Shown here one piece after another: positions 4,101-60,275 of a DNA stretch of 64,000 nucleotides. Position 1 is the first letter of the stretch. Each line of letters begins with the position of its first letter. Under the pieces are notes generated by a model that saw only the letters and a program-made list of their open reading frames with translations, did no database searches and was not told the DNA's origin. Source of the stretch: Lytechinus pictus (lineage: Eukaryota). The translations under genes were made by a program, and so were the position numbers. The stretch covers positions 22,260,001 to 22,324,000 of the forward strand of contig NC_087250.1 in the NCBI RefSeq assembly GCF_037042905.1, in the 5' to 3' direction.

Positions 4101-6934
4101 ATACAACTAATGCTCTAAGTCTTATTAAAATAAATTCACTCTATATCAAAAGAAAAGTAAAAAGAACCTAGGGAATGAACAATTCAATCAATTCAGGCAA
4201 AACAATGATTTGAAAAAAAAGTAATATACTGGGATTCGATTACTCTGATTGGATGATGCTGTTTATTTTGATACACCTGTACAATGGATGTTCTTGAGTA
4301 TTTATGGGACTAGTTATTTGACCTCATGAAGCAATATAATAGTCCAGTTCGTAATTACTTCATGGACAATTTTAGTCAAATGACCTTTCATTTCTTTCAT
4401 TATGATAGGCAGATTTCAAAGCAAGATATTACGTAAGCTTGCCTTACATAGCAGGATGAAGAAATTGAATAGACCAGGGGTGGTATTCTGAAAACGTTCT
4501 TATCTTTCTTCTTATCTTTTATCTTATCTCATTGAGATAAGAAGACGCTAAAATCACTGCAAATCGGTATTCTGAAAATCTTCTTAACGCGTTTTTATCT
4601 TTGTAAGGACTGCCTCCTTCTTATCTTCAACACGCCCATTTTTAGGATATTACCAATCAAAATGCGCTTTATATTGGCACTTTAACCAATATAAGCATTC
4701 CTTATGTCAAGAGAATATCATGGGCGCTGTGTGTACACTGTTTCTGGCGCATTGCACGAAATAGGAATTTTATACGCAATGACTGATTATTATTTCGAGA
4801 CATGTGCACAAAATAAAGAAAGAAAGAAAGTAAAGATAAATAGAAAATAAAGCAGACCTGTACGAATAAAGAATAAAATATGAATAAATAAAGTAAGTAG
4901 ACAGAAAGGTGTCAGAATGAAGCAGGAATAAAAAAAAAGATGAAAGGAACAAAGCAAAAAAATAATGAAAGAAAGAAAGAGTAAACGAAAGTAAGCAAGC
5001 AAAAAGAACTTAAAAATAAAAAATAAAAAAATAATAAAATAAGGAAAAAAAATAAAACGATTATCAATGATACAGTGAGGAAGAAAAAATGAAGAAAGAA
5101 AAGAAAGAAACTTAAAAGAAAAAAGTAAAAGGACAAAATAAAAAAGAATAAAAAGAGAGGAAAAGGAAAATGAAACAAAGAAATAAAGATGAGAGAGAAA
5201 AAATGAAAAGAAAATTAAAGCAAAAATAAAGATTACAGAAAGATAAAAAGAAAGAAAGGAAAATTCAAAGAAAGAAAAGGAACGAAAAGGGAAAATAAAA
5301 AGTCAGGAAAAGTGAAGAATTAATTAAAAAAAAGAAAACAGAAAAACATTAATGGAAAGAATAAAGAAAAATATTTTTTTTAATTGATAGAAGAAAGACA
5401 CAGAGAGGAAAGTAAAGAAAGAGCGTAAATAAAGAATGAACGAAAAAAGAATGAGCGAAATAATGAATAAAACACAAGAAAGTCATTAAATAAGACACAA
5501 GAGTGTCAGGAAGCAGAAAAAAAAATGAAAGAAAGAACAAACGAATGAACGAAAAAAGAAAAAAAAAAGAACCCAAAAATTAAAAATAAAAAAAAATAAA
5601 AATAAATAAATAAGGGGAAAAAATTAATATTAAGGGAAGGAAGAAAGAAAGAAAAAGGGGGAAAACGGAAAAGCACATATAAAGACGAAAGAATGAAAGA
5701 AAAAAAAGGAAGAAATAAAAAGATTACAAAAATGTGACGGAAGAAAGAAAATGAAAAGAAAAGAAAAGGAAAGGAAGAGAGAAAGGGGAAAGAATAAAAG
5801 CAGAAATAAAGACTTATTCAAGAAAAGAAAGAAAGGGATAAAATGAAAAGGGAAAATAAAAAAGGAAGAAAGGTGAAGAATAAATGAAACAAAGCACAAG
5901 AAAAGTAAAGAAATTAAAAGATTCAAAAAAATAAAACAAAAGATATAAATGAAGAATCAACTTAAAGAAAGAAAGAAAGACAAACACATAGAAAGGAAGA
6001 AAGACAGACAGATATAAAGGAAGAAAAAGAGAAAATAAATAAATAAAGAAAGAAAGAAAAAAGGGATAGAAAAAAGAGACGGGAAAATAAAGGGTGAATG
6101 AAAGAAAGGGTGGGAGGAATACTTGTGGGAACTTGTTACTAATAGTGGCCATCGATTTCAAGCAAGAAAGAACGCGGACATCGTGAGATGTGATAACCCT
6201 CTAGCTATCTTAAATATTATCATAAATATCGTGAAAGATAAGAAAGAGAAAAGATAAGAACGTTTTCAAAATACCACTTATCTTCATTTTGTTCTTATCT
6301 TTTTAGCGCGCTTTTGTATTACATGCGCGAGTAATACATTTACGCGCTCAGCATAGGATGTTAAGCAAGATAAGAAAAAGATAAGAACAAAATATAAGAA
6401 CGTTTTCAGAATACCAATTTGAGATCGTGACGTAGATAAGAACAAAATTAAGATAAGAACGTTTTCAGAATACCGCCCCAGGGGCGGTATTCTGAAAACG
6501 TTCTAGGGGCGGTATTCTGAAAACGTTCTTATCTTAATTTTGTTCTTATCTACGTCACGTTCTCAAATTGGTATTCTGAAAACGTTCTTATCTTTTGTTC
6601 TTATCTTTTTCTTATCTTGCTTTCCATCGATGCTGAGCGCGTAAATTTATAATTCGCGCATATGATACAAAAGCGCGCTAAAAGATAAGAACAAAATAAA
6701 GATAGGTGGTATTCTGAAAACGTTCTTATCTTTTATCTTTCTTATCTTTTTACGATATTTATGATAATATTTAAGATAGCTAGAGGGTTATCACATCTTA
6801 CGATGTCCGCATTCTTTCTTGCTAAAAATCGATGGCCACTGGTAGTAACAAGTATTCCTCCCACCCTTTCTTTCATTCACCCTTCATTTTGCCCATCTCT
6901 TTTTTCTATCCCTTTTTTCTTTCTTTCTTTTTTG

Positions 6935-6986
<52 letters not shown>

Positions 6987-9900
6987 TGTTTCTTTGTTTC
7001 TTTCTTTCTTTCTTCATTCTTCCTTTCGTTCTGTCTTTCTTTATTTCATTTATTTATTTTCTCTTTTTCTTTATTTTTATCTGTTTGTCTTTCTTCCTTT
7101 CTTTTATTCTTCATTTAAATCTTTTAACTTCTTCCTTATTTTTTGCGTTATTTTATTTATTTTTTACTTTTCTTCCTTTTTTTATTTTCCCTTTTAAATT
7201 TTTCCCTTTTTTTTTTCTTTCCCCTTTTCTCTCTTTCTTTCTTTTCCTTTTCTCTCTTTCTTTCTTTTCTTTTCTCCCTTCACTGTATTTTTTGTAATCT
7301 TTTTATTTCTTCATTCTTTTTCTTTCTTTCATTCTTTCGTTTTTATATTTTTTTTTGTTCATTTTCTTTGTTCTTTTTTTCTTTCTTTCCTCTTTCACTC
7401 AATTTTTTTAAATTTTACCCTCATTCTTTTATGTTTTCTTTCTCTTCTAATTTCTTTCATTTTATTTTTTGGTTCTTTTTATTCGCTCGTTCGTTTGCTC
7501 TTTCTTTCATTTTTTTTATTTCTGCTTTATCACCCTAAATGTGTGCCTCATTTAGGCCTACTTTCTTTTTTCTTTATTTCTTTCTTTATTCTATTTTTTC
7601 GCTCATTCTTATTTCGTTTGTTCTTTACTCTTTTTTCTATTAAGTTTTAAAAATCTTTCTCTTTATTCTTCAAGTGTCTTTCCTTTTCCTTCTTTATTTT
7701 TCCTTCAATTTGTTATTCCTCTTTTTATCATTGATTATCATTCTATTCATTCCTCCTTTTTCTTTCTTGTATTCTTTCCTTTTTTATTTCTTTAGATTTT
7801 TATATTTTCTTTTAAGTTATTTTTGCTTGCTTTCTTTCGTTTACCTTTTCTTTCTTTCATTGTTTTCCGCTCTGTTCCTTTTATTTTTTAAATTTCTGCT
7901 TCATTCTGACCCTTTTCTGTCTTCTTACTTACCTACTTACTGTCTTTCTTCCTGTTTTATTCTTTATTCGTAATTGCTTTCTTTACCTTTTTCTTTACTT
8001 TCTTTCTTTATTTTGTGCACGTGTCTCGAAATAATAATCAGTCGTTGTTGCGTATAAAATGCCTATTTCGCGCAATGCGCCAGAATCAGTGTACGCGCAG
8101 TGTCCATGATATCCGCTTCTTTTGGTTAAACTGCCAATATAAAGCGCATTTTGATTTGTAATATCATAAAAATGGGCGTGTTGAAGATAAGAAGGAGGCA
8201 GTCCTTACAGAGATAAGAACGCGTTAAGAAGATTTTCAGAATACCGATTTGCAATGATTTTAGCGTCTTCTTATCTCAATGAGATAAGAACAAAGATAAG
8301 AACAAAGATAAGAACGTTTTCAGAATACCACCCCAGGTGACTAGAATAGCACACCAATGAACACTTTATGAAGGTATTTGTTGCATATACTTTGAATGCA
8401 TATCATAGCATGTTGCACATTGTACTTGACAAACTGTGAAATACCAGTCGTTCGTGGACGCATTGTTGTTTTTTGTGGATGTAAATGAAAACCACTATTC
8501 AAAAGAATATATGAATAATCAATGAAGACATCTAAGTTGGTGCTTATCTCATTAGATTTTAAACCACAATGTCACTTTAGTTCAAATGACCTTCCCCTGA
8601 TCATGCGTAGAATATTTTATCATGCGCAGAAAGGAACTACGAACTGGCTTATTGATTGATAACAAAATCCATGTGTGTCATGTTTGAAAATAATCATCTT
8701 TCCTTTCAAGTCATTATGTACCTGATAGATGAGTGAGAAAAAATAAAGTTGAACCTATGAGGGGCGACGCACAGTGGGCCGGGGCGAAACAAAAGTGCGC
8801 CAAAAGTCATTTTGGGCAATTTCAGATTTTTAATTTTTGTCATGCCCAGCTGAAAGACATCACTTTGAAGAATACTTCAGCAAAATATTTCATTCCGGAA
8901 TTTGCATAAAGGTTGTTAATTTCCTACCTCAAATCGTAAAATGTGACATTTTGCGAAATGCCGCGTATATGACAACCTAAAATTGAAAAACAGGCGATTT
9001 CACAGGAGGTTTTCCATGTAGGAATCTGAAATGGCTCCTAAATAATCCTGATATTTTCCTTTTTAGTGTGAAAGGATTCAAAGTAGATAAAAGACACCTT
9101 TCAGGAGATTTGTAGGATGACTATTACTCGAAATAGGCTGAAAATCCATGTTTTTTGCATTTACATTAGAAACGTTTATATTTCCGTGGATTTCCGTCTA
9201 AATTCTATCAGCAACATTTTACACGATGTCCAAGCTTTAAGTCGATACCAAACTTAGCTGCCCGTTTTTATGTAAAGCCGATTTTACTTGACACATCACC
9301 CCCCAAAACGGTCATTTTTATACCGCGCAGTCATCGCAGCGCACCGTATGGGGTGTATCACTTTTGCACGGCGAGGACGATTTCCATTCCATGAAAATGA
9401 CATGAATTCCGGGCATAATGTCAACAAAATAAAGGTTGCTAACGCAAATAAGGGCTACCCAAAACTCTTCCAGAGATAAAACTTACTTGTAGAATAATTT
9501 CAGCCAAAAACCCTCCTCATAGTGATGGTGTTGTATACTCTGCGTTTTGCACAAGACTGCTCTAGTCATTGCACAAGTCAACACAGCTTGATAAAGCACG
9601 GTTAAAATTTTTCAGATTTTGAAGTATTTTTAAACAAATCTAATTAATGATCATTTTGATGCCATAAGATAATTTTCGGCATCTCATACACACTTTTTAG
9701 GCATGTGGGAAGCATAAGCCAACATTCACTTGTCAATAGTAGCACATAACACAAGGTTACGTACACTGTTTAGCGTAATTTGTCTTTTTATGATAGGTTT
9801 TATTAAAGTAGCCAATCAAAATTTGGTATCAAGGTGACGTCATATCGGCTTTAAATTATGTTCAGTCGATTCTACGCCCAAAATCACCCTTAATCAACAT

Positions 9901-12900
9901 GTTAAAGTTAAAATCTAACACGGAATATAATTTTGGCGCACTTTCAACTCATTCTGGCCCACTGTGCGACGGTTCGACCTGGTCTTTGGGTTATCGTGAA
10001 GGCTCGATCTCGTCAGGCCTAAACACCGAGTTGACAGCGTTATATTTAATTACGTATATACGAGACAAAATGACAGATGTGAATTAGGAGGTGCAGAATA
10101 TGTTCCTTCACATCACATGGCATAATTACCGACTTTTTCGAGGTCCGTATAAATATGTTGTTCCTAGCTCGCACAATATCTCCCATGAAGGATCCCAAAC
10201 GTTTTCGGCCACAGCGACGTGAAGGGGCGTAATCCCACCATCTGCCTAAATTGGTAATAACAATCACAAGAAGTTCATCTAAAATAGGCCTACTAAACAG
10301 ACAATGCAATAGATCCGATCCATTAAAACTATTGTAATTCTGATTTTGGCCAAATTGAATCTAAATTCAATTAAAAAGCATAAATGGATTTCTAAATTTC
10401 GAATTGATCAATCATTGAAAATTTGCGATCATTCCGTGACAAAAATTACGTCCCCTTAGAAAAATAATTGTTTAATGTATTACCCCAATCGAAATATTGG
10501 CAACAGAGCATCATCAACATTGGTTAACACGCTGATTTTGTTTGATTTCTACAACATGTGACCTTTCTTTCTACATAATTATATGCACTCGCTAGTTTAC
10601 AGTTTAAGGCGCATGAGTTAGCAACACTACCAAAAAACATTGCAAAATTATTCATACCATGTATACCATATTTCATAACATATTTCACGTGAGCATGACT
10701 TCTACTTTCTTGCAGACGTTTAGTTATTTCAATACATAATAAATTGATTTAAACGTCTAAAATAGAGATACGAGAATTTCAGCTTGTATTTGGAGTATTG
10801 TACGCTTAACCTGGAGTTCAAATACGCTGATATCCAAGCTGCATGACAAAAAGTAGCACTAAAGCAAGGGCAATAGGCCATTCACATGCTTCAGCTTTCT
10901 GTTGTCATAGTTGTTTCGATCAAAGTCGGTACTAACAATGGACCATGGTACTTTTAAATGTCTTTATATCTAAATATGGTTGTTGTAATGTAGAGTCCCT
11001 TGAATTTATTCGTTTGATACTATAGAGGGCGTCCTAATTTTTGGAATGGGCACGTCTGTGCTTTTACTCATACAGATACTGAGACCCGTTCCCACTCGAC
11101 TTTCACCTCTACATCTTTTTGGCGACGAGGATGGGATGGAATGGGTCTCTGAGCATAGTCGGATCCAGGGGGACCCGAGGGGCCCCCCCCCCCTATTGGC
11201 GGAACCAAAAAAGAAAACAAATGAAAGAAAAAGAGGGAAAAGAGAGGAGAAAACAGAAGAGGAGGAAGACGAGTGAATAAAAAAAATTAAATGAGGGGAA
11301 CACTTGGAAATTAAAATGAATCTTCCATGTCACAATGTAAAATTTTCGCTCGCACTGTCAGGTGATTTACATAACTTGTTCAATATGGAGCTTAAATATC
11401 AAGTTTGGAAGTCAATATACAAAACATATTTCACCTCGGAAATCGAACTTTCATTATTTTCGTGTGATTTGCAAATTGATTTGTATAAAGTGCTCTGTAA
11501 AAATGTCAGTTTTATGGTCTAAATATCAATATTTTCTGCTCGTGCTGCGCGGTCGCCAATTTTGATTTATTATTCTCGTGTATTCCATACAGTTTTCAAA
11601 ATATCCCTTTTCAGGTCTGATTGTCAAAACGTATCAGCTAGCGCTGCACGCTCGCATTTTGATTGGCGAGTTATGTATGTGTCAATATTGATTACACAAC
11701 AAACTACTTAAAATCCCCTTTTCATGACAGTTTATCAAAAATTTCGGCTCGCGATTTGCACTTGCATTAATTATGCATTGATATATAAGATATCAATTTA
11801 ATAATTAAATCGTCCCTTTTGTTTCATCTCGTGCTTAGCAAGAGGAATAGAAAGATAGTCATCATTTGCATATGATGACATGTCCTAAGGATGTCCCGGT
11901 CCTATGTCAAAACTCAAAGTAATAATAATTAAAAATATCAGCTCTTTATTAAGTGCGATCCATATCCACCTCACAATTTTTCAACAAAGTGCTTGAAATA
12001 TAGAGCTGAAATTTAACCTTTTTTTTAGATCGAAATATCAAATATTTCGCGCTCGCTTTGATTTTCATGATTAAAGATGTATTTAGAATGCCTAGATTTT
12101 AGGATTAAATCTGAAACACGCGCGTGCATCTGCTCGTGCTTTGTGCTCGCATTATTAATGTAGGAAGATCCCCTGTTAATCATCGTTTTCATGATTTACA
12201 ATAGAGTGTCCCGTTTTTAGGTCTAAATCTCGAATTTTTCCACTCGCGCTTCGCGTTCGCATCAATTGTTAAGTTAGCTATCCTGTTCACGATTACAAAT
12301 ATTGATTAAAATTTTCCATTCTTTATGTAGAAATGTAAAAGAAAAATCGGTTCAAAACGTATATACAAATTTTCTGCTCGCGCTTTGCGCTCGCATTATT
12401 AATTTAAGGAAGATCCCCGAGTACTCATCCTTTTTTATTATTTACAAAACATGAATAGAGTGTCTCGTTTTTAGGTCTAAATCTCGAAATTTTCGGCTCG
12501 CGCTTCGCATCAATTATTAAGTTATATACCTATAGGCCCGTATTCTGATAGCAGGTTTAATTTAACCCTAGTCTAAAGTTAACCCTGGTTTAACTAAACC
12601 TCCTATAAACCTCACCTCTGGTCTAAGTGTAGTTTAATTATTTTGGTATTCTGATAGCCGGGTTTAACTAAACCTGGGTTAAACCCGGGTTTCAAATTAT
12701 TTTTGGAAATAATAACCCTCTTTTAACCAAGACTAGCACCTTTTTGGTAAATTACTGCTGCAGGGATGATTGCAACAAAGTTGAAAAAATGTTACTAAAG
12801 TTGTTTTTTCTTAAAAATTTGGATTTTATAGAAACTAATTACAACTATTGTAGTGAAAGAAAATCATTCATCACCCATATATGGTAAGAAATTTTCATTA

Positions 12901-15900: not shown

Positions 15901-18900
15901 ATTTTATGAAAATCGGTTAAAAACTGAGAAAGTAGCTTGTAATGCAATATAGGCATAAATTCTAAAAAATTGTTGGCCATGATTTGTTGGATTTAAACCA
16001 GGCTTAAACTACCCCCTGCGCGAGTTTAACTTTTTGAGGATTTATTACCACACTTAGACCAGGGTTAACTTAAACCTTGCTATCGGAATACGAAACTTAA
16101 ACCTAGGTTTAAATATGGCAGTTTATTACCACACTTAGACCAGGGTTAAGTTAAACCACGCTATCAGAATACGGGCCATTCTGTTTAAGTTACAAAAAGT
16201 GCATAGAATTTCCATTCTTTAGGTAAAAGTGTCAACAATTTTCAGCTCGCGCCTGGCGCTCGCATTATATATGTAACGTCTTCATGGCTAACTGCAAGCA
16301 CTGCACATGCTGTAGGTAGGCCTACGTACAGTACCTTTTCGATCAGTTCAAAACGTGTATCAAGGATTTCTGCTCGCGCTTTGCGTTCGTAGTATAGTTG
16401 CATACACATCTTTTTCAGGATAACAAACATTGCCTAGAATTTCAAAATTTTAGGAAAAAATACATAAATTTTCAACAACAAAAAATTGCTCGCGCTTCGC
16501 GCTCGCATTATATAAATAAGGATTATGATATGACATATTTATGTTGATTTAGAATAAAGAAGTAACTATTAGGACTACCCCTTCAAAGAAACAAGATGGG
16601 GCAACATACTCCTTCATTAGATGTGCTCTTTGCAATAAAGGAAATGGGAGAGATGGTTGTTTAGGCTGTCAGAGAGGTTGTGCTACCCACAACATTAGTC
16701 ACCCAAGCTACAAATGGTCCTCGTGCACCATATGGGGTGAAGCAACAGAGAGGTCCATGTTAATCTTTTGGTGCTTATGGACATTTTGCACGAGAGTGTC
16801 AGTGGCAGCAGTGATCGCAACCAGACCAGTATTGGAGCCAACAGGAACCACATAATTCCCAGCAGGAGCAACATAGGTATCAGCATGAACAACAGAGGTT
16901 CCAACAAGATCGTCATGACAGTCAGCAACAGATGAGGGTGGGGGACCTTGTGAAAATATTAAATAAAGATTTTACGGCGAAGGCGGTTGGTGACTGCTAT
17001 GCAGTAGATGTCGAGTTCAAGGATGCCCATGTGTCTTGTTTACGGGACCCGGGCTCACAAGTCACCACAGTGGGGGAGAAGTTTTTCAGAGAACAACTAG
17101 AACCTCGAGGATTCGTGTTGGAGAAGGTCCCGGCCCCAATGTCTCTGCAAATGAGGAGGGATATTCCCTACGTAGGGTGCTTTGAGATTGATATCAAGGT
17201 CCTTGGTTAACTATTTCGAGAAAGAGATGTCCTTGTATTGGCAGAAGGGAAGCATTCAGTCCAAGGTATCCTGGGCATGAATGTTCTACATGAATTTTGG
17301 GAGCGAATGGAAAACTCAGGACAAGGATATCTAACCAGACTGAACCAGCCTTCGTCTATTCAAGCAATGCAAAGGGTGATGAAAATCATCAGTGACCGGG
17401 CCAAACTAGGTAATGAGAGTGGTGAAGTTGGAAGAGCATACCTGAGAGGGGTAACCTCATAGTATCTGCAAGGCAGTCGGTCATTATTGCGGGACAGAGC
17501 AGTACTGACACTGGAGTTACTTTTGAAGTTTTGCTGTAGCCAGATGAAGATGGGGCTATTTCAAATAAAGTGACTGTGCCTCTGTCCTCCATCAAAGTGC
17601 AACAAGGGAAATTTCCACTGCTCCTACACAACAATAGTGATTTTGACGTTGTTTTACCAGATGCTGCAACACTTGGTCGTCTCTATGTGGGTGAAAATTG
17701 TATTCAGGATCGCCATGCATCAGAAATTGACTATAAGGGTGGTAGTAATTGCAAGATTGCAATCGAAGAGAGGGGCCTAGAACCAAATCTAGACATACCA
17801 GTAGATGTCGATTACACAGCTTTAGACGAGACAGAAGTGGCCCGTTTGCGGGAGCTCCTTCAGAAGCATCAGAAAGGATTGACACTGGATTAGAAACACC
17901 CATCAGACAGCGCCACAGATCGCTCCCTCCTCCTCAATACCAGCTTGTTCGAGAGCACATTCAAGATTTGCTGGAACGTGGCATTATTCGTGAAAGTCAG
18001 AGTCCTTGAGCTTCCCCTGTAGTGGTGGTAGCATAGAAGGACGGCTGTATTCGATTTTGCGTTGACTACCGTAAGTTGAATTGTATTACACGGCGTGATT
18101 CTTTTCCCCTCCCCCGTATAGAGGAGTCCCTTCAGGCATTAGGGGAGCCAAATATTTTAGTGTGCTAGATTTAACGAGTGGATATTACCAGGTGGCCATG
18201 CACTCCGATGATGTTGCCAAGACAGCATTTGTGGTTCCCTTTGGCCTGTTTGAGTTTACAAGGCTCCCTTTTGGATTGACTAATGCACCGGCCACTTTCC
18301 AAAGGTTAACGCAGCGCTGCCTGGGAGACAGGTGCTACTATAATAGCAGCGCTTTGTATCCTCAGGCAAACAGCGCTTTCTAAATCCAGCTATTATCATT
18401 ACTTCTGTGTGCTGATGCACCTAGATGATATAATTGTGTATTTTCCAGATTTCGGCTCCCATCTCCAGCACCTTGATGAGGTTCTGACTAGGCTGAGAGC
18501 CTACGGATTGAAGCTGAAGCCAGATAAGTGCCATCTACTGAAGGACGAGGTGCAGTATATTGGACATCGTGTATCAGCAGCAGGAGTCTCTGTAGATCCA
18601 TCAAAGATATCCATTGTCCAGGAATGGCCAAATTTGGGAACATTGACAGTCGTCAGAGCATTTCTTGAATTTACAGGTTTCTTTCGACGATTTGTGGCTG
18701 GATATGCAATGATTGTTGCACCTTTGTTCCGATACGTTGGGGTAAATCCTTTAAGAAGAAGGGCAAGAAGAAGGCAATAGTCTTAGGCTCAACCAAGTTT
18801 GAGCTAGATGAAGAAGCTCAGAAGGCAAAGGAGGCTTTGATCCAGTGTCTAACCACTGCCCCGATACTAGCCTATGCTGATTTTCAGAAGCCGTTCAAAG

Positions 18901-21900
18901 TTGAGACCGAGGCAAGTTTCACTGGTCTTGGGGCTATTCTATAACAGGAAGATGGGATGGGGTGGACCATGTCATTGCCTTTGCCTCCCAGACATTGAAG
19001 TCTGCAGAACGAAGCTGACGATACAGTGCATTCAAACTGGAGCTTCTCGCTATAAAGTGGGCCGTGACGGAAGTTTTCAAAGAATACTTCTTATGTAACA
19101 GATGCACAGTGGCCACAGACCATCATCCTTTGTTGTTCCTGGATAAGGCTAACCTTGGCTGTGTAGAGATGCGATGGGTCCAGCAATTGAGTGTGTTCGA
19201 CTTTGAAATCGTGTACCGTCCTGGCAAGGCAAATCAGGCCCCAGATGTCCTGTCACGTAGAAATACCCCCATCCTCGATAAGTCAGATGTCATTGTGACT
19301 AGTTGCAACATGAAGGCGACGTTCGAGGGTTATTCTCCAGGCACACAGGTTCCCCATGCAGTTTGTCTCCATACCGAGGTGAATCGCCAGGGAGGAACGC
19401 CCTGCCTACACGGACTGTCAATGCAGGAGATAGAAGTTTAGCAGAAGGCTGATAACGTGTTATAAGAAGTTCGAGGATTTTTTCGACGAGGTACAACTCC
19501 CGCCAGACAGGAGCAGGAGCAACTTTCCCGTGATGTATTAGACCTGCTAAGGGAATGGAAAAGGCTCTCTTTCGAAGATGGTGTCTTGCTCATTGATTCA
19601 GAACGATGGGCGGCTACATCAGACAACATCATATTCGATTGAAAACAGCAAGAGCTCTGGCCACTCAGCGAGCCAAGTCTGCCATCGCTGCAAGGCATGT
19701 TCAATTCAATTTAATTCAATTCAATTTATTTTTCATTCTTCAACATAATACAAATGATTACAAGATAAATTAATTCGATTTGAATAAAAGCATGAACAAA
19801 ATTCAATATTGAATAAATAATATACATATTCAATGAGTGATTCAAATATAAATTAACATGCATGTCAAATTCAAATCATTATAATCAATATAATTAAATC
19901 AATATAATTATATATCATGAGAAGAATGGAGGGGTCCACTGAAAAGTAAAGCTTGCAAAAAGTTAGGATAGAAAGAATATTGAAATATACGTAAAGGAAT
20001 ACATGAAGATGTTAAACAGGCAAAGAAGGTTTTCGAGACACCGCCTGGGCTGGGGCAATACGTTCTCGTCAGGAAGTAGGCCTTCAAGGGTAGACGTAAA
20101 ATCCAAGATGCCTGGGAGGAAGAGCGCCTGACAAGAAGGCAGAAGGTCCTATTTTTAAAGTATATGGTATGACTCGGCCGGGGATCGAACACACGACCTC
20201 CCGTCCATGAGGCTGGTGCTCTACCACTGAGCCACCATACGCGTGTACATGTGTACAGGAGGTCATTTCTGATGAGTCAGGAAGTAGGAATTCAAACTCG
20301 ATAGCTGTTGCAGGTCATGTCTTGCGTCAACCAGGGAATGCAGGTGAAGTGAGCCAAGTAGAAATTGGTAGTGCTGGATTTAGCCATGACGAAGAAGACA
20401 ACGACCTCCCTTCTTCTGAATCAAGGGATACGACTCATCCTTCTTCAGATAGCTCTAGTGACCGATATCCAGAGAGGGTGAATCGGGGGGTCCCGCCCAA
20501 GAGATATCGGAATGTCTATTTGGACTAGTTCTAACGATTTGTTAATTTGTTACTAGATTAGTTTTTGCTTTGTCATCACTGGACGATAAGTGGGGAAGGT
20601 TGTAGAGTCCGTTGAATTTATTCGTTTGATACTATAGATGGCGTCCTAATTGTTGGACTGGGTACTTCTGTGCATTTACTTATACAGATACTGAGACCGG
20701 TTCCCACTCGGCTTTCTGTTATTAACCTCTGTTCACCTCTAAAGCAAGGTGATACGGTTTGCGAAGATGCCTGTTAAAATATGTTTAAAAGATAGCATCA
20801 TAATAATTTGTACCTTTGCCGCGATATCTGCTCCCATTTCCACCAACATCTTTACCGAATCCAGTCTTCCCAGTGATGCAGCACGGTGCAGTGGACTCTG
20901 ACCATCGATATCCTTAGACTGAATTTCTGCTCCGTGGTCCAAAAGAAACTTGACAACCTCAGCACGATTGCTATCAATATTATCGTAAAAATAAGTATAA
21001 TTTACAATTAAACTTCAGAATTATACAAATATTTGGCAACCTATAAGAATTATTTATATCAAAATAAGAGGCTCTTTAACAAATTTCAAGATGGCGAAAG
21101 TAAAAAAAACAATAAGAAAAGAAATGGCGGTTTCAGAAAAAAGCAGTAAGCCTGAAGTAATTAAAAGCGTTTTTGATAATTTGGGAGCCCTAATAGACAT
21201 TCGAAATGTATCACGTCTTATAAAACCATAATATCAGATTCAGGAATGTTATCAATAATGTTCACAGGCTATACACATTTAAAGGTAAAAGAAAGTAGTT
21301 GCAGCAAATAATTTTTTCATGGGAAAGTTTTTCAAATTAATTTAAATTGACACCATATTAAGATGTATCTAGGTTTGGTACATTAATGTAAACTTATCAT
21401 TGTGAAATCACGAATCTTAGCTCAAAATTGATAATTTTGATGATCACTAATACAGAAAAGCCTAATAAGCGGGGTGGTGTATTAATATTGGGAAAATGCC
21501 CGATAATTGATTGAATTCTGTGCTTATTTTACTCATTTCTCAGCAATTACACATTTTATTCCATAGCCATTCGGCACATATTTTTTATTCATACATACAA
21601 ACACTTAGGTGGTAATTTTCTTGGGTTCTGTTGGAACACATTTTGAGATCGTTACCACACCTGGGGCCCGTTTCATAAAGCTGTTCGTAAGTTACGGATG
21701 ACTTTACGCACGACTGGTGACCCTTTCTTGTGCTATATGATATATCCCTATGTAGCTGATTCATGTATAAGAACATGTTCCAGTCGTTCGTAACGTTTGC
21801 GTCACTTTACGAACAGCCTTATGAAACACCACCCGGGTATATCTTTAAACCGGAGGATAAACTCAAGTGCAAACATGGGACAGATGAATAATGCTGATTC

Positions 21901-24900
21901 TTACAAATGTAACCAAATAAAATGTGTTTCTCTACAGGAAATCTGAATGTTTGATTCCATAGCTTCTCCTCAAGTAAGTCTGACCGAAACAAAGGAAAAC
22001 ATTTTCAACAAAAAAAGAGACCGGCTCATTATAAATGCTCCAGATGAGAGTTGGTTAACGTTGACTTCTACAAGTAAGTCTGACAATATTTACCATTCTG
22101 CAGCATTGTGTAAGGGAGTAGATTCTGTCTGATCTCTTAAGTTGATATCAGCATTTTTCTCCAATAGGAGTTTGACTGCCTCAATCTGTCCGAAGCCACT
22201 CGCAACGTGCAATGATGTTTGACCAGATGAGTTCTTTAAATAAATGGGCAAAGTATGGAAGCAGAAAGGAAATTGTAAAATGCCGATTGATCTACATGTA
22301 CGCACACTGTGTAAAATTTCAGTCTCATTCTACATACTGTGCCTCTACGTATATTTAATAACTAGTTCGCCTAGCAAAACTAGTGGAACGCCTCCAGTAG
22401 TCTCGACTGCATTACGCGATTCAATTTAGCAGCAGTGCTGAATTTGAAAACAACTATTGAAAACTTATTTACACAAAACATTCATACTAAGTTCATTAAC
22501 ACGGAGTTCATCATACATGTATGACCTGACACTAATGCACAAGGATTAGATATATTCGATTGCCTTTATGTCAAGGTTTCATGCAATAGATCCATTTACT
22601 TTCAAAGTTATGGTACATTTTCAAAACTTAACCTTGGTTTAGGATTTCAATGTAGAAACCACATAAAAATTATAGTGTATGCACCATGTAATAAAGGTGC
22701 AAATTCGCATCTGTTTAGCGCCAAGTATTGCCCAAATGAAAGGACAAGTCCACCCCAACAAAATGTTCATTTGAAATAAGAATTGAAAAAGCTCACAAGC
22801 ATAATACTGACAATTTCATCAAAATCTGATGCAAAAACAAGACAGATATGACATTTTAAAAGTTCACTTAATTTGAAATACATAACCTACATTTCTTTTG
22901 CATTTTATTATTGGAAATATGGAATACTTAAATTTTCCTCTCATTATCTTTGAAACAAACCTTTTTCTCTCCATATTTATGAGGAATTACCCTTGTTTTA
23001 ACATTTTGTGGTTAAGTCATGTTAAAATCTGTAAACATTTAACATTGCATAATTCAAACAATACAAAAAAATGTGCTACAAGCATATATGGTGCAAAGCG
23101 TCTTACTGTGTACCTTTAAGTTGATGTCTATGCGCCCATCGTCCAAACACACCTTCAGCAGGTCGATATTATTGTATAGTGCGGCCCAGAATAGAACACT
23201 ATCTCCCTTCTTGTTTTTAACATGAATGTCGGCATTTTTTCCTAAAAAGTACTCTATGACGTCGATCTGATTTCTTAAAAAAATAAAATATGAACAAAAC
23301 TTTACAACATAAAACTGTAAATATGCATCAAAGTCAGAACATGTGTTAACTCCATGGTCAGAAGGTGTAAGTAATATCTAATACTAGCCATTATTCCCCA
23401 ACTAACATAGGAATACTGTACGCCAACATCAGCCATCCCATATTCGTTAAATCGTATTGTTCCGTGGGCCCGCTGCGTATCACTTATATTCTTCATACGA
23501 AGAATATTCTATAGGACTGGTCACTCAAAGCCAATAACTTGATAAAATACAATTTTCCCACGAATCAGGCTTGTTATATAAAGCCGTGCCCGTGTAAATT
23601 GCGTGTAAGTCTAAAGACGACCGCACATCTTACAATTGGTATGCAATCCGATTTTATAAAAATATGTTGTAGAATTTGATGCTAATATTGAGACTTACAT
23701 GTAGAATATCTTACTGTGTAATGTTCGAAATCATCGTACGAATACCTATGTTCAAATCTATGACTATGATATCATCCTTCTTAGAATAAAAGCGAATTTA
23801 ATATCTAGTCGTAATGATGTCATAGCAGTCGTACGATTGGCTACGATTTGAAACTAATTTGGCATTTACTCCAAAATAAAGGTTTGCAATCTTTCAAAAT
23901 GGTTATATTAGCATTCTTTCAATTAATTTTAACCTCGAATGAAATGATATGTTGAACCATTCAAATTTTCAGAAAATGAGCAAAGTGCGATTTGTTCAAA
24001 AATCGAATCACGAACATTCGTAAGGTGTGCGGTGGCCTTAAGGCTGGGTTCACATAGAAGTATACTATTCGGGTATACGGTGCACGTTTTCGAGGGCACG
24101 CGAATAGCTTGAATCGAACAATAGGATTTCCTAATACCGGGTCACATGAGAGGGCACTATACGAAAATGCCGTATAGCTGCGTATAGTATAGTATAGTGG
24201 GAATCTTACTTATTCGATTTTCGTGCAGCGTATACAGACGTGGCAGGTGGTGTTCTTAATTTCCCTATAATATTTGCTGTGTGCGTTGGTTAAATGAGGT
24301 AAGTTCAAATGAAATGATTTCTTGGTACTCTTTTTATTGGAATTTCTAGCACATGCCGTCATATTTAAGTTATCCAGCACTTCAGAGTTTATCTCATTCA
24401 CATGCTGTATGATTTATGTGGGTTCTGCATTTTTCGTTCTGTCTTTTTTTGACCTTAAAATGACTGAAGATACAAGGTCAAAAAGGTCCGCAGCGAATGC
24501 TACTTGACCTATGTTGTTGTGTATCGCTGAGTCATGTTTAATTAATTACTTAATTATTCTTATAATAAGTCGATAATAATGTGGAAATAGATTTCATTCA
24601 AGAAAATATTGTTTATAAAATGATTTATTTATTATTTCACTTTTGCTATGATTTCACAAAGCTGGGATGGGAGAGTATAATCAAGCTCCCCCCCCCCCTA
24701 AAAATGACGTCATCAAAGCAAAAAATAGGAATGATTGATAAAATCAATTAGGCTGATACAGGTTTGAAATCTTAAAATATAAATTTGGAAACATAGCTAC
24801 AGTATTTCCAATAACATTCCTCAACCCCCCCCCCCCCCCTCCCCCAAAATAAAATTTAAGTTTTTAGTGTGTAAAATCATATGGCTTAAATAAGCCCATC

Positions 24901-39900: not shown

Positions 39901-42285
39901 AGTTATAAAATTCAATTAAAAACAGTTTATTTCAATTCACATGTTCTTAAAAAATAATGAGGCATTGAACATACTGCCCCGTATTCTCAAAAGAGGTTAC
40001 AATTGTACCATGGTACATGACCATGGACTATGCATATTTATTAACATAATTAGGCTATCCAACTTAGATCCTGTATAGTGATTGGTTCAAATAGCATCAT
40101 GTGACCAAATATATTTCAACTATGATGTTGCGTGACGTCAGACCTCGATATATATTTCGCTATACCAATATTTTGATGTCATAATTTCAGAAAAAATGAT
40201 TTTTGGCAAAACTTTTGGGCACACCTCTCGGTAAGCTGTCTCTCACGGCCAAGTCCCGTGATGTGTGTCAACGCAGGCCCTTATCCGCGTTCCGTTGAGC
40301 CCGGTGGCTTGTGGAAAAGTAAACATGGTAAAAAGACTAGGAGATAGGGGTTTTATTCAGAATTTTTGGTGGGGAAGGTTTGACAGGCTTATCCAGGGTA
40401 ACATTATGTGCTGATTCCAAAAAAATGTGACTCTTATTGACTGTCCCCACGAATTATTGGCCAGTTTTTGACCAAAATGATAATTTTTAGCACTCTTTGG
40501 TCCATTAACATAATTCTTTTGTTACCACATCCAATTAAAAGTATCCATCCTCAGTAAAAATGCACCCAGATTCCAGATAAATTGGTTTTATTTGCTAAAT
40601 CACAACGTTTTGAAAAAAAAGGACAATTTTCATGATTTTTTTTTTTGACCAAAATGTGTTACAAGTATTGATCAGAACTTCGATTGGATGTCTTTAGAAA
40701 TCAACATTTATTTTTAAAATGTGCGCTGGATTATAATAATCAACCTCGTGTAATTTGTTCCGTCAGGTCTGGGCTATAAGGGCCATTTTGGGTACTTAAG
40801 ACACGACTTTACCATATGACGTCACCTTGATTCCAAATTTTGATTGACTACTTCAAACCTATCTGTGAATAGACAAATTACGCTAAACAATGTGTAGTAT
40901 ATAAACTTTGTGTTATGTCTTACTTTAAGATTGACCAGAGTGAATGTTGGTTTATGCTTCTCACACGCCAAAAAAGTGTGTATGGGATCCTGAAAATAAT
41001 TTTATGGCATCAAAATGATCATTAGATTTTTAAAAAATACTTTAAAATCTGAAAAAATATTAACCGTGCTTTATCAAGCTGTGTAGACTTGTGTAAAACG
41101 CAAAGTAACACCACGATTGTATCACTATGAAGAGGGTTCTTGGCTGAAATCATTCTACAAGTAATTTTTTTCTCTGGAAGAGGGGTGTGTAGCCCTTATA
41201 GTTATCAACCTTCATCTTGTTTACATTATGCCCGAAATTCATGTCATTTTCATGGAATGGAAGGGGAATCGTTCTCGCCGTGCAAAAATCAACGGCAATG
41301 TATATCCTATATACATTGTACGGTGCGCTGCGATGGCATGCGCGGTAAAAAATGACCATTTTGGGGTGATGTGTCAAGTAAAATCGGCCCCAATATGAAA
41401 ACGGGCGAAAACGGGCAGCTAAATTTGGTATCGACTTAAAGCTTAGACATCAGGAAAAATGATGTTGATAGAATTTAGACGGAAATCTACGAAAATTTAA
41501 ACATTTCTAATGTAAATGCAAAAAATGGATTATCAGCTTATTTCGAGGAATAATTATCATATAACCCTCCTGAAAAGGTGTCTTTTATCTACTTTGGACT
41601 CTTTCCCACGAAAAAAAATGTATATCAGGATTATGTTGGAGCCATTTCAGATTACTTCATGAAAAAACTCCTGTGAAATGGCTTGTTTTTCAACTAAGTT
41701 GTCATATACGCAGCATTTCGCAAAATGTCACATTTTACGATTATAAGGTAGGAAATTAAGAACGTTTATGCACATTCCAGAATGAAATATTTTGCTGAAG
41801 TATTTTTCGAAGAGTTGTCTTTCAGCTGGGCATGACAAAAATTAAAAATCTGAAATTGCCCAAAATGACTTTTGGCGCATTTTTGTTTCGCCCCTGCCCA
41901 ATGTGCGACGCTTCGTTATTTCGAAGGTTCGTCATTCCGAAGGTTTGTCATTTCGAAGGTTCGTTAGTCAGAAAACGAAATGAGGTTCGCAATTCCGAAG
42001 GTTCGTTAATCCGAAAATGAATTAAGGTTCGTTTGAAAATATTATATTCATGTATTCCATAAAGTTCTCAAAATAATAGTATTCCTTTTCCGGTCTGATC
42101 GTCAAAACTTATCACCTGGCACTGCGTGCTCGCATTTTTATTAGTATGTATACGACTACTTCTCAGGGGCCGCGGAACGGTTTTCAAAGTGGGGGGGGCT
42201 GACCATGCAAATAATCATAATCCTATGGTCATTTTTACGTTTTTGTACACGATTTTTGAAAAAAAGTGGGGGGCTGAAGCCCCCA

Positions 42286-57477: not shown

Positions 57478-58162
57478 GTAAGTGACGTATCCCTTCCTTC
57501 TATGAATATTCATGAGTAGTGTGAATTAAAGTGTAGTCACGTGGTAAATCTTATCAAAAAACATTCACTGGTAGATCATCATCTTAACATTATCCATCGT
57601 ATTACAAAAAAATGCTGATTGAACAAAGTATGCTGATTGAACAAAGTATGCTGCTTGAATAAATATAACCAAAAAAAATTATTTCGTCAATAACATTACA
57701 AACTTATAGCTGCGTGGGAGCGTGTTCATGTGAGTGTGTCTTATTATTCTTTTTGGTGACCAATGTAGTTGTGTTGTTTTAAATAGAAAATATCGTATAT
57801 AAAAGATGCATTATTAGATATCTTAGCTTTATAATATTCAAATATATTGATATAAAAGGGCGTAGGCTTGGGTTACGCAGCATGTGCACGTGCATCCATC
57901 CGCTGGGCAGAGGAGTCCCGACACTGGCAAGCAAAACGAAATTTGTCACGATTCTTCTGATTGCAACAGTTGATTTTCCAAACTTAAGTTCAACCCCCCC
58001 CCCCCCCCCCCATACCCCTTTAGTTCCACCTCCCTAGGATGTCCATTCCAAATGCTCAAACCAGCCTACGCTCTTGATATATTGTTTGAAGAAAAGTATG
58101 TTTTTAAAAAGCATACTGTTTGAAAAACGTCAATGACTGAAAAATATATATTTATTATACAG

Positions 58163-58401
58163 GTGGACAGTATGCATACATCGAGACATCAAGCCCCAGA
58201 GTTCCGGGGGAGAACGCACGTCTGACAAGCCCCTATAACCAGGTCGTCGCAGGCGGCACAAAATGCCTTCGATTCTATTACCACATGTACGGGGCGACCA
58301 TGGGCACTTTCAATATCTATGTGTCGAAGGTCGGGGACCCCTTGGGTAACCCCGTCTTCCAGATGATAGGGACTCAAGGAGACGAGTGGAATATTGGACA
58401 G
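58163..58401 (+). CDS. MAM-domain gene exon (GQYAYIETSSPRVPGENARLTSP...CLRFYYHMYGATMGTFNIYV...GTQGDEWNIGQ)
   Basis: Canonical MAM core (YIE-S, ARL-SP, CL-FYYHMYG, QG--W). The MAM C-terminal strands were not found in the window, so the gene probably continues. Confidence 0.93.
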
Positions 58402-60275
58402 GTAAGAATTTTTATTTTTGTATTCATTATCGATTCGGACCGGCTTTATTTTTTGTTGTTTAAACAATGCTCATTCTTTATCAACTTGGGCATCTTGCAA
58501 ACTGAGAACAAGTTTATTTTATTAATATCAAACACCCACACCCGCACACACACCCCCTCACACACATCCTCACACCTTCTTTTTTTTTTTTTTTTACAAA
58601 AAAAGATTACAAATCTTCATTTTATATCAACAAGGATATGCAAAAAATAAAATACATATATATTTACCAAAAACTGAAGCAAATAAGGACGGAATGAAAT
58701 TCCTTAAAATTATACTTTTATATCTATAGAAAAAAATTACTTAACTGAGCCCCCAACCCTCTGTGTATTTTAATGATAATTAATAATAAATGACTGAATG
58801 ATACCCTCTCCCATACACATACACACCCTCACACAAACACACCCTCTCCCACACACACACACTCACACACCGAATTTCTCCTTCCTTTAAGTTGTGTTCT
58901 CTGCGGCTATTTTCTCTCCTCCCCTCTTTTATCCATTTAAATCAAAATAACGAGAAGAGTGAATATTAATTAAACGCTATGATCAACTGAATAAATGAAT
59001 TAATAATTAAACTAGGCGATTTCTTTTATTTTAATTAATAAAGAAAATAAATCATTCAAAATAAATAAAACTGCTAAAACAAATATATGAAGCATATTAT
59101 AACAAAACGATGAAAAGTTCAACTTTACAGAACTAACAATGATATGATGACGGAAAAACAATACATTTTTAAATATGACGGGCAGCATCCCCCCACCTCC
59201 CCCCAAATAAATTAATTAAATAAATAAATTTCTAAAAAATAATTATAATAGAAAAACGTAATCAATCGGTTGATTCAGTTGAGAGCTTATAATAACGGAT
59301 GTATAGAAAGAATACGATTTTGACACAAGTTCTTTACTTTTTTTCTATTCTTACACATAAGTATTTGACTACCTCCGCCATCAATTGTTTAGCATAAATG
59401 AACATAACTCGTTAACAATATCAAAATCGAAACAGATCGAGATAAATCAATCATAAATGTTATTGAAACGTTGCAGTTATGAAAGTAGTGTTAGGGTTTA
59501 AAGCTAGAGAACAATGTTATAATTATACATGACAGGTTAATACGACTATCAGTTAGCAATTACATTGAGGTTTAGCCTTGAATTCTCGATGGCTGATTAT
59601 AGATTTACATCCCGTTTACGTTCTGTACACATTCCTTTGTAAGATAATTATAGCAAGCAGCGTATATGCTGAGGCCTATCCTAAGATGACCTCTTATCTT
59701 ACTTTATTTCTGTCGTTTATCTTTCTTTCTCTATTCTCTTCTCCCTCTTCAACTCTAAAAAATAATGGGTAAAAGTGCTCCATGAGGGTAATTAGGTGTC
59801 CAAACAACATTTGGGCATTTCTTTTGGGGCATTTTGATTTATCCAGTGTGGTGAAAATTTTGCTAATTCTAAAGTAATTGATGCTTATTTTCTTACCTTA
59901 CTAGACAATATGGTTCCCGCATTTAATTGGGTAACATACTGCCCCAAATTGGTTGAACACATAATGCATGTAATTACCCTCGTGCTGGTTAAAATTTACA
60001 CAATATTTGTTCACAGTGTAACACTCTCTTACATCTTCTCTCTTTCCTCCCCCTCCTCTCCTTTTCTCCTACCCCTCCCCATCCCTCCCTCTCTACACCT
60101 CTCTCTCTCAATCTCCTCTGTTATTCGTCCCTCTCATCACATTCCAATTTTCTTCCATCATCCTCTCCTTTTTTATCTTTCTTTCATATACCTCTCCACC
60201 TCTCCCTCACTCTATGATGTCTGCATTTGAAAATAGTCACGTTATGAGTATAGTCGAATCAGCTCTTGATGCTTA

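Follow-up and report, generated by a model that had tools for sequence, protein, structure and literature searches.

Among the described Transib transposons, Transib-N1_SP of the purple sea urchin is a non-autonomous element with perfect inverted ends and targets of the CGNCG type (PMC1131882 Fig. S4g), a motif also given as the Transib target (PMC4735498). Most Transib families comprise ends on both sides that resemble a recombination signal sequence (RSS) with a 23-nt spacer, and only some show a 12/23 arrangement (PMC1131882). Transib1_SP, an autonomous sea-urchin Transib of about 4 kb, has a CGGCG target-site duplication (TSD) and one transposase of about 700 amino acids (aa) (PMC1131882), and Hztransib shows nick-hairpin cleavage and invariably 5-bp duplications (PMC4840297). 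Here, an element of this type was analyzed in a stretch of 64,000 nucleotides from Lytechinus pictus (NCBI RefSeq assembly GCF_037042905.1, contig NC_087250.1, positions 22,260,001 to 22,324,000 of the forward strand; in the following the window). We consider it highly probable that this element is a gene-less copy from an abundant sea-urchin family, which has symmetric ends of 36 bp and TSDs of 5 bp, and that it was likely derived from a canonical Transib by internal deletion and likely moved in trans by the single-gene DDE transposase of that lineage.

The element spans positions 8770-9966 (1197 bp), with CACAGTG as its first and CACTGTG as its last bases, and is flanked by a perfect TSD, CGACG, at 8765-8769 and 9967-9971. 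The terminal inverted repeats (TIRs) comprise at both ends a first block of 11 bp, CACAGTGGGCC, followed by 11 variable nt and a second block of 14 bp, AAAGTGCGCCAAAA; directly after the heptamer stands GGCC. Matches to the first block were found in the window twice exactly and once with one mismatch, compared to 0.17 expected. The longest stop-free frame of the element comprises 74 codons and the longest ATG-started one 46, and an Rfam search of the element gave no match. These data confirm the heptamer ends, the length, the TSD, the bipartite TIR and the non-coding nature stated in the first-pass annotation, which was made from the sequence without database searches. Its term "intact" holds true for the ends, but not for the whole element, since the transposase gene is gone and the sequence lies 4.0% off the majority of its family. 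Compared to Transib-N1_SP, both TIR blocks are identical, and the 11-nt variable stretch, the 36-bp ends, the CGNCG-type TSDs, the size of about 1 kb and the absence of a gene are likewise shared. In contrast, the ends of Transib-N1_SP are perfect repeats and most of its listed copies measure about 0.9 kb, while here the 11-nt stretch differs between the ends and the length is about 1.2 kb. The likeness concerns ends and targets; the interior of Transib-N1_SP is not printed in the supplement of PMC1131882.

When the 812-Mb genome was searched at the DNA level, 544 candidates were obtained; the 40 that were scored gave 48 matches, many of them full length. The family of the window element, with copies of about 1.2 kb, is termed family A, and a sister family of about 2.0 kb family B. 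Genome-wide, the bipartite end pattern occurs exactly 723 times, compared to 0 for a reversed-pattern control, and the exact left end of family A 195 times. The 30 best-scoring copies of family A, 27 of them with both ends, were fetched, a sample that leans towards young copies. Other copies share the TSD and the heptamer: among the 27 two-ended copies, 19 showed a perfect TSD, six showed one mismatch and two had a damaged terminus, and CACAGTG was present in 26/30 left and 25/27 right ends. CGNCG accounts for 15 of the 19 perfect TSDs, compared to 0.12% of the window positions. The divergence from the family majority ranges from 3.4% to 7.4% in 23 aligned copies (window copy: 4.0% of aligned sites), and the closest pair differs by 1.1%. 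No transposase remnant was found in family A by tblastn (E>=0.19). The window element belongs to a real, abundant transposon family, which comprises at least about 200 gene-less copies. A literature search on Transib transposons in Lytechinus gave no title that treats it.

A second copy of family A is located in the window at 40814-41905 on the minus strand (91% identity to the majority over 1107 columns). A mutation has given it CACATTG at the left end, about 120 bases of its right end are gone, and an element made of 16-bp tandem repeats adjoins it. At two further loci (L070:2557-2566 and L075:1815-1824), head-to-tail copies, A-B and A-A respectively, lie 8 bases apart in CGC-repeat targets, which suggests strong insertion hot spots at CGNCG runs. 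Three longer two-ended copies (C1:42.46 Mb, C2:64.39 Mb and C2:43.15 Mb) turned out to be ordinary copies, the extra length of which comprises, as judged by eye, Tc1/mariner- or reverse-transcriptase-like frames; no RAG1L match was seen among the results listed for them.

Apart from the shortness of the motifs, nothing speaks for inverted ends and a duplication brought together by chance or by a local arrangement, without any transposon. This explanation can practically be dismissed: copies are scattered through the genome by the hundreds, their ends are sharp and their TSDs differ, contig depth shows a step at both element ends in four runs, and an empty site exists. The empty site was found in run X2, in which a single contig of 1552 bp aligns to 8671-8763 and to 9966-10444; its left part is followed by one CGACG and runs on directly into the right flank, with no element in between. 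Run X10 from the same sample agrees with this, and runs X1 and X6 are uninformative since they do not cover the left flank. The single CGACG of the empty-site contig indicates that the duplication arose on insertion.

A likely origin of the element is indicated by a long relative on contig C11, where four long copies with both ends were found, which on account of their shared flanks represent one insertion that was later duplicated. The C11 element is colinear with about 85% of the window element, namely with element positions 1-692 (71%), 715-789 (73%) and 941-1197 (70%), and between the colinear blocks lies a frameshifted gene that matches residues 6-697 of a 697-aa transposase. Accordingly, a long relative with the same ends does encode a Transib transposase, one of the alternatives named in the first-pass annotation, but in a form broken by stops, frameshifts and later insertions. 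In terms of these blocks, the features of the window element are as follows:

8765..8769, plus strand: left target-site duplication CGACG, of the CGNCG type; single CGACG at the empty site (runs X2/X10)
8770..8805, plus strand: left 36-bp TIR with block 1 at 8770-8780, 11 variable nt and block 2 at 8792-8805; 32/36 bases equal the Transib-N1_SP end (hand count)
8789..8797, plus strand: 12-spaced 9-mer with 6/9 matches to the nonamer; block 2, common to both ends, begins with the last six of these nine bases
8800..8808, plus strand: 23-spaced A-tract with 6/9 matches; the right-end equivalent, at equal distance, has 5/9
8770..9461, plus strand: 5' non-coding arm, aligning colinearly with the left arm of the long C11 Transib (71% over 749 columns)
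9484..9558, plus strand: similar to a C11 segment that lies upstream of the transposase frame at a distance of about 0.3-0.4 kb (73% over 85 columns)
9559..9709, no strand: stretch without match between the matched blocks, inside which the deletion of the transposase gene would have to fall
9710..9966, plus strand: 3' non-coding arm, matching C11 DNA from downstream of the transposase to the right end (70% over 270 columns)
9931..9966, minus strand: right 36-bp TIR with the block spacing of the left; 28/36 bases equal the Transib-N1_SP end (hand count)
9967..9971, plus strand: right target-site duplication CGACG

Once its insertions are disregarded, hardly any space remains beside the transposase in the C11 element (RAG2L was not searched for), and the element is of the same plan as Transib1_SP, to which it is likened by description only; it differs from Transib1_SP in being broken. 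The C11 element is read as a sister of the window element and not as its direct parent.

Family B (L066-L074, L076 and L077; e.g. G000:C1:16046120-16048121), which was found by the end-pattern search, has both TIR blocks of family A, and all of its 11 aligned copies showed perfect TSDs of the CGNCG type; this count omits two further loci, one with an insertion and one single-ended. Unlike family A, it retains a transposase remnant of 56 codons, corresponding to the last ~55 codons, to which at least 150 matches were obtained. The 56 residues led to a match to a 321-aa protein and to an uninterrupted 495-codon frame on C15 (L111:3848-5332, minus strand; G000:C15:7470347-7471831), which comprises all three catalytic motifs. 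In the C15 frame, the first zinc-site cysteine reads tyrosine, whereas the database protein P0054 has cysteine. Neither transposon ends in the 15.5 kb read nor a match to the N-terminal 238 residues was found for this frame, which may be a remnant or a domesticated gene. In the annotated protein P0055, the family B remnant is located in the middle of the model among Ig-type domains, possibly as an exonised piece or as a prediction error. A copy on C17 with a CGGCG duplication has both family B ends as well as pieces of the transposase, and in a copy on C2 the left arm of family B continues into the N-terminal coding region. Apart from C11, the Transib remnants, on C15, C8, C17, C7, C2 (twice) and C19, are fragments. 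The same bipartite end, together with B-like subterminal sequence, was also observed in two metagenome contigs (L109:50-85, plus strand, and L110:491-526, minus strand), which points to related families in other genomes.

A Pfam scan of the canonical Transib protein yielded 0 families. Compared to solved structures, the best match of the C15 frame was 6pqn (E=6.4e-83), followed by a RAG1L chain, 6b40 (4.5e-5), and RAG1 (0.013), and the GFDG, TMxD and SEEAxE catalytic motifs align. We take 6pqn to be HzTransib, although its database label reads only "DNA-mediated transposase"; in this case, HzTransib would be the closest solved structure to a protein of the partner lineage. The two systems differ in their ends, which show little or no likeness to the nonamer in HzTransib (PMC4840297) and comprise a long second block in the sea urchins. 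A quick tree was built from 32 proteins, namely 20 of 120 listed Transib-like hits, 10 of 53 RAG1L hits and two of our own. Both own transposases were placed among insect Transib-like proteins, in a group of 12 members to which a protein of the purple sea urchin also belongs; RAG1L was placed across a long branch from the Transib side (SH-aLRT 100).

Based on the colinearity with C11, the Transib gene enclosed there and the tree, the most plausible reading of the window element is that of a canonical Transib reduced to its two arms by deletion of the gene. A comparable case is Kodama/Hopper, a deletion derivative of the Drosophila Transib Nozomi (bioRxiv 10.64898/2026.08.26.747230), which is likewise a long MITE-like derivative with a central deletion that spread in trans. 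It differs in its target motif and in that some strains possess an intact autonomous parent. Several points weigh against the proposed origin. The closest long element, that on C11, is broken and only 70-76% identical, and its TSD is imperfect, with CGCCG or CACCG on the left and CGCTG on the right. No intact direct parent was found among the 64 scored of 126 candidates. The empty site stems from one sample, and its flanks are about 6-10% off the window (9/93 bases differ on the left, and about 480 bases on the right show 28 changes and 21 gaps), so that the contig may represent another population, a distant haplotype or a related species. Finally, the putative role of block 2, which is discussed below, is deduced solely from its conservation.

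As a second possible mover, the first-pass annotation had named a RAG-like transposase. RAGL transposons such as ProtoRAG, PflRAGL-A and TransibSU comprise CAC ends and 5-bp GC-rich TSDs (PMC8289069, PMC10462144, PMC7204232, PMC4411706), two convergent genes, an A-rich TR2 beside the heptamer and an asymmetry in spacer length (27/31; 10 bp in PflRAGL-A). The window element shares with them the superfamily, the CAC ends and the 5-bp GC-rich TSD. It differs in that an A-rich TR2 and a spacer asymmetry are absent and in that no convergent genes were seen (RAG2L was not searched for). A RAG-like mover (RAG1L-RAG2L, TransibSU) would be compatible with the exact RSS heptamer and the 5-bp TSD, and RAG1L genes are present in the genome, where 17 matches to the RAG1 family were obtained (Pfam), with open frames of more than 600 codons at three places. 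However, in 18 stretches (171 kb) around the RAG1L hits, neither an end with <=5 changes nor any similarity at E<=0.01 was found, and two hits with 6 changes near RAG1L represent one chance-level sequence, the start of which is not CAC. Furthermore, RAGL ends are A-rich at positions 8-10, where the window element shows GGC. RAG1L was rejected as partner since no matching end occurs in these 171 kb and the gene enclosed between matching ends is a canonical Transib. Altogether, mobilization by a RAG-like transposase is regarded as highly improbable and as largely refuted. The Transib transposase named as mover in the first-pass annotation is supported by the C11 gene, the structure match and the tree.

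Regarding the RAG1L loci themselves, which were also recovered with a RAG1L protein search, one RAG1L protein is identical to an entry labelled Lytechinus pictus. The genes L031-L033, L041 and L046 (G000:C182, C233 and C4:15.67 Mb) show open cores of 612-624 codons with a C-terminal CxxC-GH-C motif, and many broken RAG1L pieces were observed, including a tandem array at C9:18.14-18.20 Mb.

Further, it had been claimed that the element may preserve a 12/23-type asymmetry of its ends. On this account, the left end would function with its 12-spaced and the right end with its 23-spaced A-tract, and the lineage would pair unlike ends. The underlying scores were reproduced: the 12-spaced site matches the nonamer at 6/9 bases on the left and only 3/9 on the right, and the 23-spaced site at 6/9 and 5/9, respectively. 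By chance, a nonamer match of >=6/9 occurs at 1.7% of the window positions, or at 4.5% with a shift of +/-1 allowed. The left form is also typical of the family, as ACAAAAGTG is the majority form of family A left ends (23/30) and TTGAAAGTG was found in 25/27 right ends. In addition, the left 12-spaced site scored higher than the right one in all five two-ended elements or majorities compared (6/3, 5/4, 5/1, 5/4 and 5/4), and Transibs with 12/23 ends do exist, namely Transib5, Transib2_AG and TransibN1-N3_AG (PMC1131882), which share with the window element heptamer-like ends, an A-tract inside the end and a 5-bp TSD.

Against this stands that the five cases represent only two lineages. Three of the six matched bases of the left 12-spaced site lie in the block common to both ends; six of the nine bases of the site belong to block 2, and the difference between left and right amounts to three bases in the freely drifting stretch. 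Outside family A, the left score is lower: the C11 relative and family B reach 5/9 and two left-type metagenome ends 4-5/9. Right ends score 1-5/9. A sub-group with ACGAAAGTG (4/30 left ends) includes the copies most alike, which indicates that it holds the most recently spread ones. The left end also keeps an equally good 23-spaced site (6/9), and Transib-N1_SP comprises the same blocks on identical ends, with 5/9 at the 12-spaced site of both (hand count). While the common A-tract block is displaced between the ends of the 12/23-asymmetric Transibs, by 11 nt in TransibN1_AG (hand count), the offset of block 2 is 0 in the window copy, in both family majorities, in C11 and in C17. Accordingly, functional 12/23-like ends are very unlikely, and the claimed asymmetry is not upheld: the majority of ACAAAAGTG, and with it the 12-spaced A-tract in the family consensus, is read as shared descent. 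Both ends show, as expected of the ~38-bp Transib end, an A-tract spaced about 23 nt from the heptamer, and the window element is an ordinary non-autonomous Transib with symmetric 23-type ends, close to Transib-N1_SP. Another difference between the ends beyond the nonamer position was observed at 8800-8816, where left ends, unlike right ends, have a short inverted CCAAAA copy 4-5 bases further in; plain shared descent may explain this as well.

A related possibility is that both ends carry the A-tract twice behind an exact RSS heptamer, 12- and 23-spaced and one helical turn apart, as a pre-adaptation to 12/23 pairing, with the left/right pair being preferred by vertebrate RAG or by Transib. 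Such "double" ends could become a 12/23 pair if each of them lost one of its tracts, and the beginning of this process would be seen in the 12-spaced site, which in both lineages is slightly better on the left. We regard this as a speculative proposal with a small chance of being correct.

For the ordinary Transib considered here, the transposase of a then-intact relative would bind both ends, excise the 1.2-kb piece and insert it at CGACG. By analogy to the biochemistry of HzTransib, both ends would be bound alike, the nick would be placed at the border of the CAC heptamer with hairpins formed on the flanks, and the insertion at CGNCG would occur with a 5-nt stagger. There would be no difference in length by which the ends could be told apart. 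Block 2 (AAAGTGCGCCAAAA) is likely a second, putative binding site: it has been conserved in different lineages, in contrast to the drifting 11 nt that precede it. A GRP motif, of the kind that contacts the nonamer in RAG1, was found in the N-terminal part of 5/6 full-length relatives inspected and could be a candidate contact for block 2.

In the neighborhood of the element, a large foldback-like structure with 224-nt arms of 95% complementarity is located just to the left (4473-8338), with an inner 123-nt palindrome at 6357-6628 and purine- and pyrimidine-rich arms. It is adjoined by a very high-copy repeat at 8282-8657, as judged by contig depth. Further features of the window are fragments of a reverse transcriptase and an RNase H in separate short frames at 18310-19438 (plus strand), which represent a decayed LTR retroelement, as well as an ankyrin-repeat frame at 23057-23377 (minus strand) and a MAM-domain frame at 58141-58647 (plus strand), both of which are probably host exons.

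Transib ends resembling an RSS, GC-rich TSDs of 5 bp and the very end sequence described here, from a sea urchin, have been in print since 2005. What is added by the present analysis are two abundant gene-less families linked to canonical Transib transposase remnants in the genome, and an allele with an empty site. As far as sequence comparison can tell, a pairing bias by the A-tracts does not appear to be favored; if it were true that two A-tracts per end bias pairing, the 12/23 rule could have arisen in a simple way from Transib ends that were symmetric.

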